IMG/VR virus record: IMGVR_UViG_3300020473_000017
Direction: 5' to 3' (one strand)
DNA length: 64,000 nt
From: a virus
In this document: positions 5,939 through 7,526 of the stretch, piece after piece
How positions within the stretch are numbered: the first letter of the stretch is position 1
How the letters are laid out: each line of letters begins with the position of its first letter
Position numbers and translations under genes: made by a program
The notes under the pieces: model-generated
Told to the model about the DNA's origin: nothing
Database searches by the model: none
Seen by the model: only the letters and a program-made list of their open reading frames with translations

Positions 5939-6113
5939 CTCTAACCAATGCTAATAATGTAGGGTTGTCTTCTTCAATCCACTCGTGCCATTCATTATAC
6001 AATGCAAACATATCATCATACTGTTTGTCTAATATAAGTTCATCACTACGATTCTGCATCCATTCCAACAGTCTATGACACTGCTCTTTAAGTATCGGTG
6101 GTGCGTTGTTCAT
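5925..6113 (-). CDS. Hypothetical protein
   Basis: 62 aa ORF overlapping both neighbours. Confidence 0.65.
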   Translation of the reverse strand: MNNAPPILKEQCHRLLEWMQNRSDELILDKQYDDMFALYNEWHEWIEEDNPTLLALVRDEEI

Positions 6114-6564
6114 TGAAATAATCCTTCTTCATATAGCGTCCGAGAATGTTTGAATTATAAAAATTCTCATCCTCACTCAGTACATTATTTAGGAACAATT
6201 GTCTGGTCTCTTCGTAGTTTACCCACCCCTTTGTCCTGTGGAGACTGAGGATTTCTCTTCTGAAAATTGAGCGTCCAAGTTTCTTAACGTCGTCTGTAAG
6301 CTGTTTAGAACTTCCGTAGTAGCGTTTCCAGTCACTCTCAGACGTAACTTTGCGTTTCCCACCTCTAGGCTTTCTACTACTGGTAAAGTACTTGCGGCCG
6401 ATGTACTTCCTACCCGTTGTGAGATTTGTAATACAGTAGACGTAACCGAAGAAGCCGTTAATGTCAGAAGAAGTAAAAGTTGTACCCTTATAGGTCCAGG
6501 GGTTCTCATAGTCTCCTTCCAAAGTTTGCTGATCTGTTTCATTATTAGTCTGGATAGCCGTCAT
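6088..6564 (-). CDS. GIY-YIG endonuclease (T4 Endo II/Seg-like); start may be TTG at 6522
   Basis: GYVYCITNLTTGRKYIGRK...WKRYYGS...E...FYN. Confidence 0.8.
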   Translation of the reverse strand: MTAIQTNNETDQQTLEGDYENPWTYKGTTFTSSDINGFFGYVYCITNLTTGRKYIGRKYFTSSRKPRGGKRKVTSESDWKRYYGSSKQLTDDVKKLGRSIFRREILSLHRTKGWVNYEETRQLFLNNVLSEDENFYNSNILGRYMKKDYFNEQRTTDT

Positions 6565-6697
6565 CGTCATCACCACTATACCATTGATCACCATTTTTGT
6601 CAAGATAAGAATCTTTATCTGCGTAAACTTCTACCTTTAATTCTGTTAATAACTCCTCAAGTTGATCTATTAATATTTTTAATCTTCCTTTTTGCAT
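6545..6697 (-). CDS. Small acidic hypothetical protein (50 aa, not in ORF track)
   Basis: Read by hand: MQKGRLKILIDQLEELLTELKVEVYADKDSYLDKNGDQWYSGDDDDGYPD*. Confidence 0.7.
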   Translation of the reverse strand: MQKGRLKILIDQLEELLTELKVEVYADKDSYLDKNGDQWYSGDDDDGYPD

Positions 6698-6735
6698 AAA
6701 AAATATCCCCGATTACAATATGTAGTCAGGGATAA
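6697..6735 (-). terminator. Intrinsic terminator after the DUF4278 gene
   Basis: Minus strand: TATCCCTGACTACA-TAT-TGTAATCGGGGATA followed by a T run. Confidence 0.65.
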
Positions 6736-6754
6736 GTTTAGAATAAGCAAGTGT

Positions 6755-6889
6755 CTAAGGGGTGACTACACAGTACTCTTTTTCCTGTGAGTGCTTGATC
6801 CCCCTGTAGGTCAGATCAGTTTTGATCTTCTGACAAGATTTCTTGTCATTGGTGTCATAAGTGACACCACGGTAAGTGACTTGTGCCAT
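6755..6889 (-). CDS. DUF4278-family small protein (44 aa, not in ORF track)
   Basis: MAQVTYRGVTYDTNDKKSCQKIKTDLTYRGIKHSQEKEYCVVTP*; duplicated (L/V)TYRG(V/I) motif; AGGAG RBS upstream. Confidence 0.85.
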   Translation of the reverse strand: MAQVTYRGVTYDTNDKKSCQKIKTDLTYRGIKHSQEKEYCVVTP

Positions 6890-6922
6890 GGAATTACTCC
6901 TAAAGTAGTTGGGTTTTTAATC

Positions 6923-7110
6923 CGTTCCTTTAGTCGTTTGCGTCCCAACAACCTGGTTCAGTGTTTGCTTTAATAACTTCTGTTAGTTCTTCTTGAGCCT
7001 CCTTTGAGAGATAACTGTTAGTTACAGCATTCTCTAAGAGATGATCAGCACCTTGACAGGTTAGAACTAAAGTACCAAAACTAGCAATGAGTAGGTTCAT
7101 GAGATGAACG
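6923..7110 (-). ncRNA. Glutamine riboswitch-like aptamer 2 (Downstream-peptide/glnA class) with an ORF in its P2 loop
   Basis: CGTTCA-TCTC-[~145 nt]-GGGA-CGCAAACGACTAAA-GGAACG; P1 CGTTC/GAACG; lies upstream of the DUF4278 gene. Confidence 0.65.
6930..7100 (-). CDS. Small hypothetical protein nested in the riboswitch (56 aa, not in ORF track)
   Basis: MNLLIASFGTLVLTCQGADHLLENAVTNSYLSKEAQEELTEVIKANTEPGCWDAND*; hydrophobic N-terminus and two Cys. Confidence 0.7.
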   Translation of the reverse strand: MNLLIASFGTLVLTCQGADHLLENAVTNSYLSKEAQEELTEVIKANTEPGCWDAND

Positions 7111-7114
7111 TATC

Positions 7115-7152
7115 CGTTCCGCGACTTACTTGCGACCCTAATGGGTTGAACG
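7115..7152 (-). ncRNA. Glutamine riboswitch-like aptamer 1
   Basis: CGTTCA-ACCC-ATTA-GGGT-CGCAAGTAAGTCGC-GGAACG: P1 CGTTC/GAACG, P2 ACCC/GGGT and a CGCA junction. Confidence 0.75.
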
Positions 7153-7190
7153 TATGTGCTAATACTAACACAGTTATACTATATAGTCAA
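7152..7190 (-). promoter_or_regulatory. Sigma70-type promoter overlapped by an NtcA-like box
   Basis: TTGACT-N17-TAGTAT; GTA-TTAGCACA-TAC (7152-7165) overlaps the -10 element and start region. Confidence 0.6.
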
Positions 7191-7411
7191 CCTTTTTCGT
7201 ATCTCTTGATACTTTTTTCCCATTCTTGTAACGAACTGCTACAGTCTGGGGGTTCAGGTTCTTTATATCCCTTCATCTTCTTCCACTTGTTATACAATGC
7301 ACCTAGTATCCATGACTGCGATAAACTTTTAGGTCCATTCTCAAGTAATTCAAGATACTTTTTATTGCTTGTATATGCTTTATACTCTTCTCTCCAATTA
7401 GTATCATCCAC
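7187..7411 (-). CDS. Conserved cyanophage hypothetical protein
   Basis: GTG start DDTNWREEYKAY...GPKSLSQSW...PPDCSSS. Confidence 0.7.
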   Translation of the reverse strand: MDDTNWREEYKAYTSNKKYLELLENGPKSLSQSWILGALYNKWKKMKGYKEPEPPDCSSSLQEWEKSIKRYEKG

Positions 7412-7526
7412 CAGCAAAATCCTCCCACTTATCACAACAGGATTCTTTATATGCTCTTATCATATCATCAAGTTCCCATTCTATTTTATCAGAGGGAGAA
7501 TCCTGAGAAGGTGTCTCCTTCGACAT
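7404..7526 (-). CDS. Small acidic ORF overlapping the nrdB 3' end (40 aa)
   Basis: Read by hand: MSKETPSQDSPSDKIEWELDDMIRAYKESCCDKWEDFAGG*; fills the gap between nrdB and the next gene. Confidence 0.45.
   Translation of the reverse strand: MSKETPSQDSPSDKIEWELDDMIRAYKESCCDKWEDFAGG

Follow-up and report, generated by a model that had tools for sequence, protein, structure and literature searches.

The cassette described here lies on the minus strand of a 64,000-nt stretch of DNA from a marine cyanophage (IMG/VR virus record IMGVR_UViG_3300020473_000017; hereafter the window), where it is read from position 7215 to 6697. It consists of a promoter, a leader with two copies of the conserved core of a glutamine riboswitch, a Shine-Dalgarno (SD) sequence and a small DUF4278 gene, and a complete open reading frame (ORF) of 56 codons lies inside the second core (Table 1). 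A preliminary description of this DNA had listed the promoter, both cores, the nested ORF, the ribosome binding site (RBS) and the DUF4278 gene, and all of them are found where it had placed them on the minus strand. It was also right that an insert replaces the P2 loop of the second aptamer, but the insert between TCTC and GGGA measures 154 nt rather than the ~145 nt that it gave. We think it reasonably likely that the leader is a double glutamine sensor, in which two interlocked cores enclose a gene.

Table 1. Parts of the cassette in window coordinates, in the direction of reading. P1, P2 and P3 are helices of the aptamer; outer and inner refer to the interlocked arrangement of the two cores.
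Feature	Position	Strand	Sequence or remark
NtcA-type box	7212-7199	minus	GTA-N8-TAC (GTATCAAGAGATAC); centre ~53 nt upstream of core 1
Sigma-70-type promoter	7190-7162	minus	TTGACT-17 nt-TAGTAT, TG-extended -10
Predicted transcription start	~7155	minus	Inferred from promoter
Core 1, complete	7152-7114	minus	CGTTCA, ACCC-ATTA-GGGT, CGCA, AGTAAGTCGC (RNA letters AGUAAGUCGC), GGAACGG
CGUUCA of core 1	7147..7152	minus	Outer P1 5' strand if the cores are interlocked
Core 1 P2 hairpin	7135..7146	minus	ACCC-AUUA-GGGU
Core 1 junction and P3 5' strand	7121..7134	minus	CGCA-AGUA; P3 strand AGUCG, 7126-7122; from the Rfam alignment
GGAACGG(1)-AUA-CGUUCA(2)	7105..7120	minus	Local hairpin GAACG/CGUUC, inner P1 if interlocked; if tandem, core 1 P1 3' strand and core 2 P1 5' strand
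Core 2 5' half	7110-7101	minus	CGTTCA-TCTC; nested ATG directly after, at 7100
Inner P2 5' strand	7100..7104	minus	UCUCA, last base is A of the nested AUG; partner UGGGA, 6947-6943
Nested ORF	7100-6930	minus	56 codons and UAA; ends TGG GAC GCA AAC GAC TAA (W-D-A-N-D-stop)
Core 2 3' half	6947-6922	minus	UGGGA-CGCA-AACGACTAAA (RNA letters AACGACUAAA)-GGAACGG; contains UGGGA (inner P2), CGCA, AA, CGACU (P3 3' strand, 6936-6932)
Nested stop codon	6932-6930	minus	UAA, then A, then GGAACGG carrying the outer P1 3' strand
Anti-SD pairing region	6897..6933	minus	CUAAAG 6933-6928 with CUUUAG 6905-6900
SD sequence of DUF4278	6901-6897	minus	AGGAG
DUF4278 gene	6889-6755	minus	44 aa, two YRG repeats; IF17/gifB-like small protein
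Terminator-like hairpin	6734-6697	minus	13 pairs, then AUUUUUU; from RNAfold; closes the cassette

The layout is shared by many phages. The isolates P-SSM2, ACG-2014d, ACG-2014i and S-SZBM1, which represent different Kyanoviridae genera, carry the parts in identical order. A scan of IMG/VR with the 5' junction alone found at least 120 contigs. Among the matches listed there were 119 unique loci; all 119 have the 3' half where the ORF ends, 117 have the nested stop codon exactly 4 nt before GGAACGG, and in every one the linker between the cores is 2-4 nt long (in the window it is ATA, in RNA AUA, which makes 4 nt from GGAACG to CGTTCA). To judge from these sequences, the layout is far beyond chance. 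In a second scan the 3' junction served as the query and both P2 strands were left free, and the two scans combined gave at least 170 unique loci. Among the 170 in the matches listed, 109 are of the window type, core 1 having a hairpin and core 2 an ORF. Both cores contain ORFs in 34, core 1 alone does so in 7, and two plain hairpins are present in 20. The plain version has the same promoter, both cores, the RBS and DUF4278, and a tetraloop where the window has its ORF. When positions 7100-6947 (154 nt) are taken out of the window, the remainder is 86% identical over 283 nt to one such ORF-free locus (L150). The UAA or UGA that ends the nested ORF is already present in ORF-free aptamers, within the sensor sequence ACU-RAAG-GAACGG; by this comparison, the nested ORF borrows the stop codon of the sensor.

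A scan of species genome contigs with the junction motif gave 21 matches, none of them cyanobacterial; they fall mostly in unrelated taxa and a few marine metagenome-assembled genomes, and we estimate that about as many would be expected by chance. Two metatranscriptome contigs cover parts of the cassette, one spanning 6790-6966 with 0 differences and the other 6937-7102 with 1 difference. RNA libraries can contain DNA, and these contigs show neither strand nor ends, and we do not count them as proof of transcription.

As the preliminary description had proposed, the leader belongs to the glutamine riboswitch/DUF4278 system. All of the sequence-based tests that it had named as possible refutations favor it: natural homologs without the ORF exceed the Rfam cut-off, P2 covaries, and dN/dS (see below) is < 1. 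The whole window, searched against Rfam at gathering thresholds, gave no match; below threshold it matches only in core 1, with 27.4 bits for RF01739 (cut-off 35) and 23.2 bits for RF01704 (cut-off 33). Scores for the state without an ORF were taken from natural ORF-free homologs. RF01739 aligns to these, the locus with 86% identity to the window among them, as a single aptamer across both cores, with 38.4-41.4 bits. In this spanning alignment P1 is formed by the first CGUUC and the last GAACG, and P3 by AGU...ACU around an insert of 38-39 nt. Single cores score 23-34 bits with RF01739 or RF01704, and one unsplit core, in L162, reaches 34 bits and so comes out just above the RF01704 cut-off. 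The three-way junction of RF01739 can be recognized, with an invariant P1 and compensatory changes in P2 and P3, and RNAalifold recovers P1 and P2. The position of the leader is that of glutamine-I leaders as well: 32 nt separate the last GGAACGG from the DUF4278 ORF downstream, whose product matches Pfam PF14105 (27.9 bits, cut-off 25.3) and phrog_5049. For glutamine-II, the score is below the cut-off and GGAACGG lacks a flanking hairpin. From these scores and features we conclude that the element is a variant of the glutamine riboswitch, with the window below and the ORF-free allele above the Rfam cut-off.

Is the nested ORF a gene? The 154-nt insert could be a structured spacer RNA and nothing else, with its ORF untranslated. 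The nested ORF of the window is without a clear SD sequence, and the predicted folds place its AUG within or beside helices. Nevertheless, we consider such a spacer highly improbable. An in-frame AUG 3-10 nt after CGUUCA is followed by an open frame to the stop codon of the sensor in 137 of the 143 split loci, with start and stop codons exactly at the helix ends. The frame is kept in these 137 although dS, the rate of synonymous substitution, is > 1, and the loop lengths of split loci differ by multiples of 3. At the same position, 134 distinct homologs could be aligned, with two invariant cysteines. The ratio of nonsynonymous to synonymous rates (dN/dS) in the ORF interior is 0.235 in close pairs (27/27 < 1) and 0.47 overall. 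The protein matches the profile of phrog_504 (E = 5e-10, 39.9 bits, residues 13-56), and AlphaFold2 gives a confident two-helix hairpin (predicted local distance difference test, pLDDT, 81). By these measures the nested ORF is a real gene under purifying selection. The protein has no Pfam match, a sequence search and a Foldseek search of the PDB returned no informative match, and a search of the ESM Atlas gave unnamed viral clusters only. A tblastn search of isolate phages with the 56-aa protein finds matches at the syntenic position, with E-values that are weak (0.2-0.9) because the protein is short.

The end of the nested ORF is constrained in a different way from its interior. The Asp codons that overlap the sensor are GAC in 133/133 and 134/135 homologs, compared to 23% in the ORF interior, the overlapping Ala codon is GCA in 135/135 (41% in the interior), and the overlapping Asn codon is AAC in 74/76 (29% in the interior). 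Such frozen synonymous sites indicate that the last codons are held by a constraint at the RNA level. Exceptional loci illustrate the point. In one frameshift variant (L026), the ORF ends early and an intact 3' half still follows downstream. Three loci (L029, L088 and L093) have a divergent 66-aa ORF in the same loop, with a signal-peptide-like start (MKFLLPLLLL...) and the ending RDAND-stop. Thus, the C-terminus is dictated by the RNA, and more than one kind of ORF uses the frame of the sensor.

The preliminary description had held that the second core is split by a complete gene whose last codons are the 3' half of the aptamer. This proved correct, and covariation supports a pairing of the two halves across the ORF. 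The bases that follow CGUUCA(2) and those that precede CGCA(2) occur in 29 haplotypes that keep the pairing, nearly all with 4-6 contiguous pairs (for example, UCCCA/UGGGA, UCUCA/UGGGA, UCCUCA/UGAGGA, UCCUUA/UAAGGA, UCUAUG/CAUAGA, CCCCA/UGGGG and UUCUUA/UGAGAA). In an alignment of 108 sequences the inner P2 is 97% paired, and both sides change at two pairs (UA:106/CG:2 and CG:89/UA:9/UG:7). The whole proposed fold is 97.6% paired in these sequences, compared to 32-55% with slid partners, and 0/500 shuffles equal it. Because the non-coding 5' strand of the inner P2 tracks the coding 3' strand, this pairing points to an RNA helix rather than a coding artefact. The long-range inner P2 is also part of the minimum free energy (MFE) structure that RNAfold predicts for the leader of the window. 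When just the ORF interior is shuffled with its dinucleotides preserved, the pairing probability of the inner P2 falls from 0.71 to 0.23 (36 loci); it drops in 34 of the 36 loci (Wilcoxon p = 3e-10). In these folding models, the coding sequence looks as if it were adapted to bring its ends together.

How the two cores fit together is a separate question. Core 1 has an invariant CGUUCA (108/108 aligned loci), which both RNAalifold and Rfam pair with the last GAACG, and a P2 hairpin with compensatory changes at 4/4 pairs. AGUCG in core 1 is complementary to CGACU in core 2, and this P3 helix varies in a compensatory manner (AAUCG/CGAUU, AGUCA/UGACU, AGUUG/CAACU, GGUCG/CGACU); in a longer junction class there is an extra P3 pair, for which 43 loci have U-A and 14 have A-U, with 0 exceptions. 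With no structure imposed, RNAalifold finds the outer P1, the local GAACG/CGUUC hairpin and the long-range P2, and the local hairpin is present in the RNAfold MFE structure as well. The predicted energies for the window are -72.6 kcal/mol for the interlocked fold, -68.4 for the tandem fold and -73.9 for the MFE structure with the anti-SD helix described below.

We picture the interlocked sensor as follows. The outer core would follow the plan of type I (glnA RNA), with P1 formed by CGUUC (7152-7148) and GAACG (6927-6923), P2 by the first hairpin and P3 by AGUCG/CGACU. The inner core, lying inside P3, would be a circular permutation of the outer one, with a loop-closed P1 (GAACG-GAUA-CGUUC) and an open P3. 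The two cores would share P3, and the inner P2 (UCUCA/UGGGA) would enclose the 56-codon gene. Both cores keep CGUUCA, CGCA and GGAACGG, and the glutamine pocket of the solved glutamine-II structure is built from CGUUC, the GC of CGCA, and GGAACGG (PMC6698751). By analogy, each core, including the permuted inner one, would bind glutamine.

The preliminary description had called the leader tandem. That label is probably wrong, with the cores interlocked rather than side by side: in both the Rfam type-I model and RNAalifold, the partner of the first CGUUC is the last GAACG, and the cores are connected by a covarying helix. In a plain tandem riboswitch, core 1 would be self-closed, core 2 would be closed over the ORF, the two would act cooperatively on DUF4278, and P3 would be a tertiary bridge. 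We give this arrangement a modest chance. Tandem glnA RNAs have been described (PMC2864571), each core has all of the conserved nucleotides, the sole Rfam match of the window is to core 1 alone, and the P1 strands are identical in sequence, so that partners are not assignable by covariation. However, a tandem arrangement would require the covarying P3 to form a pseudoknot that links two closed multiloops. In predicted energy the tandem fold is also 4 kcal/mol less stable than the interlocked one, the spanning Rfam alignment scores 38-41 bits versus 23-34 for single cores, RNAalifold chooses the outer P1, and the linker of 2-4 nt is always the size of a hairpin loop.

It could also be that only the outer type-I aptamer senses glutamine, that the inner core elaborates P3, and that the ORF is a passenger, a small moron tolerated in a variable loop and uncoupled from the sensor. 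In favor of this reading, the length of the P2 hairpins differs widely within the family, either loop of the cassette may contain or lack an ORF in related phages, and at least two divergent types of ORF occupy the same loop. We judge this improbable: the CGUUCA, CGCA and GGAACGG of the inner core are (nearly) invariant in >100 divergent loci, which goes beyond what a scaffold needs, the ORF interiors favor closure of the stem, start and stop codons fall exactly at the helix ends in 137 of the 143 split loci, and the stop codon lies within the covarying anti-SD helix.

This anti-SD helix, with the nested stop codon in it, was not part of the preliminary description. CUAAAG overlaps the 3' strand of P3, the nested stop codon and the first G of GGAACGG, and CUUUAG overlaps the SD sequence of DUF4278. 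The helix is 95% paired. At its middle pair, 46 loci have A-U, 34 have G-C and 22 have G-U, and AAA never occurs together with UUCAGG (0/60). The MFE structure of the window includes the helix and is just 1.3 kcal/mol below the interlocked aptamer fold. The anti-SD helix is likely the expression platform. A pairing between a downstream CCC run and the GGGA of the inner P2 was considered and rejected; it forms 6 bp in the window and is not conserved beyond 3 bp elsewhere. What the sequences show is the layout, covariation in each of three helices (inner P2, P3 and anti-SD), and a coding sequence under selection whose ends are parts of the sensor.

Which way the leader regulates, and how ribosomes act on it, we infer. 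In the published model, P1 stabilized by glutamine competes with a pairing that masks the RBS, and translation is turned on (PMC6212724, PMC6698751). In the phage leader without glutamine, CUAAAG, beside the outer P1, would pair with CUUUAG and mask part of the DUF4278 SD sequence. Glutamine would stabilize the outer P1 and P3, the anti-SD pairing would be lost, and translation of DUF4278 would be on, as in cyanobacterial gifB leaders.

Ribosomes on the nested gene could disturb these structures. A ribosome initiating at 7100 would cover the inner P1 and inner P2, and one terminating at 6932-6930 would cover the inner P2, CGCA, P3 and the outer P1 and would melt the anti-SD helix. Since the start codon adjoins the inner P1 and P2, and the last six codons and the stop are the 3' half of the sensor, a ribosome that initiates or terminates on the gene would have to melt both the sensor and the anti-SD helix. 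Translation of the nested gene and a folded sensor would then be mutually exclusive, and the folded, glutamine-bound sensor would hinder initiation on the nested gene. The outcome could be a reciprocal switch, coupled translation or a product of the first round only. The switch between two small proteins by glutamine status that the preliminary description had suggested is likewise hypothetical. We speculate, tentatively, that a two-site, pseudo-symmetric glutamine sensor on one mRNA drives two cistrons in opposite directions, with the aptamer itself being translated. At high glutamine the fold would be locked, with the nested start buried and the SD sequence of DUF4278 free. At low glutamine ribosomes would enter the nested gene and erase the sensor while reading its 3' half. 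If this is true, sensor and ribosome are in direct competition for the same nucleotides.

Several observations speak against an interlocked sensor that is coupled to its gene in this way. The P1 strands are invariant, so covariation cannot separate interlocked from tandem partners, and the window itself is below the Rfam cut-offs (27.4 and 23.2 bits). RNAalifold finds no positionally conserved structure within the ORF interior, and the folding z-score of the window's own ORF segment is just -1.68, a modest value. The nested ORF of the window has no good SD sequence (GGAUA, where most loci have GGAG), and all of the predicted folds bury its start in structure. Lastly, a terminating ribosome that opens the anti-SD helix could work against a clean reciprocal switch.

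In some loci the sensor contains a second ORF. In about a quarter of the related loci, the core 1 hairpin is also replaced by an ORF, of ~65 codons (MLSILLALTLAHH...WHMSCERF...); these include L010, L015, L019, L026, L087 (where it lies ~210 nt upstream of the junction) and ~35 others. Its AUG adjoins CGUUCA-UCUC, its stop codon (UGA, UAG or UAA) lies within the 3' strand of the stem, and the stem covaries (UCUCA/UGAGA, UCUUA/UAAGA). The product has a hydrophobic N-terminus and two cysteines and, by its sequence features, may be paralogous to the nested protein. A further variation is found between the last GGAACGG and the SD sequence, where some loci (L032, L059, L078, L087, L090, L115, L133, L165, L178 and L184) have a conserved insert of ~35 nt, AAACGGAUCC-hairpin-GAGAAGGUUAA, that the window does not have.

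The flanks of the cassette contain additional features. The NtcA-type box is just upstream of the -35 sequence, within the 3' end of the upstream ORF. In 105 of 164 related loci, a GTA-N8-TAC is found no more than 110 nt upstream of core 1, compared to 4% of random windows, and the distance from its centre to core 1 is mostly 51-54 nt. Besides glutamine, the cassette may read 2-oxoglutarate through NtcA. At the other end, a consensus terminator scan listed no terminator, though RNAfold gives the hairpin and U run in Table 1. A candidate for the small RNA SpF36 (6700-6749, plus strand; 21.4 bits, cut-off 48) was rejected; it is the reverse complement of this terminator hairpin. Two small ORFs flank the cassette on the minus strand, 6545-6697 (phrog_878) and 7187-7435 (phrog_16908). 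Just downstream is a gene for a SegE-type GIY-YIG homing endonuclease (6088-6603, minus strand; PF19835, 2.5e-48). In other cyanophages talC follows the cassette in place of this gene. A mobile endonuclease adjoins a cassette that is known in filled and empty forms.

Several of the individual parts have precedents. Matches to glnA RNA in cyanophages are on record (PMC9964418), Weinberg et al. 2010 noted tandem glnA RNAs (PMC2864571), and it is published that glutamine riboswitches are associated with DUF4278 genes (PMC6212724). We found no published description of a gene inside an aptamer or of interlocked cores. The phage element resembles glutamine-I RNAs (RF01739) such as the Synechocystis gifB/IF17 leader (Klahn et al. 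2018, PMC6212724) in its P1 (CGUUC/GAACG), P2 hairpin, AAGUA...RAAG junction and P3, in its location in the 5' leader of a DUF4278 gene, and in having sequence beside the 3' strand of P1 that can pair with the RBS. In contrast to glutamine-I, where CGGA is found, the phage element has CGCA, as in type II. Its P3 holds a second complete core instead of a small hairpin, and the P2 of that core holds a 56-codon gene. The element is also phage-encoded, and its junction is absent from the cyanobacterial species genomes scanned. With glutamine-II RNAs (the Downstream-peptide motif, RF01704, PMC6698751) it shares CGUUCA, a hairpin, CGCA and GGAACGG with the pocket nucleotides. Glutamine-II RNAs precede short DUF4278-type ORFs in marine picocyanobacteria and are ON switches in reporters. 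They differ from the phage element, which has no second hairpin enclosing GGAACGG and in which two cores share a helix.

Like tandem riboswitches (PMC2864571), the phage leader has two sensor cores for the same ligand. Unlike them, its cores appear to be interlocked through P3, and one encloses coding sequence. The phage leader has a parallel in introns, too. There, ORFs for homing endonucleases sit in loops of group I and group II introns, and dual-function RNAs exist. As in introns, a coding sequence is located in a peripheral loop and the RNA core must fold around it. In contrast, the phage RNA is a metabolite-sensing mRNA leader, and the start and last codons of its ORF are within the helices and the binding core of the sensor.

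Riboswitch aptamers are usually treated as compact, non-coding units that precede genes, and here a gene lies within the fold of a widespread sensor. Part of the sensor's binding core doubles as codons, which ties metabolite sensing directly and physically to translation and would be a new route to two outputs from one leader. Because standard covariance-model scans miss split aptamers, censuses of riboswitches in phages and metagenomes may undercount them. The C-terminal part of IF17, which is needed for binding to glutamine synthetase, is missing from short marine homologs (PMC6212724). The combination of an NtcA-type box, a glutamine sensor, an IF17-like peptide and a two-cysteine peptide suggests that cyanophages read the nitrogen status of their host and possibly manipulate it.

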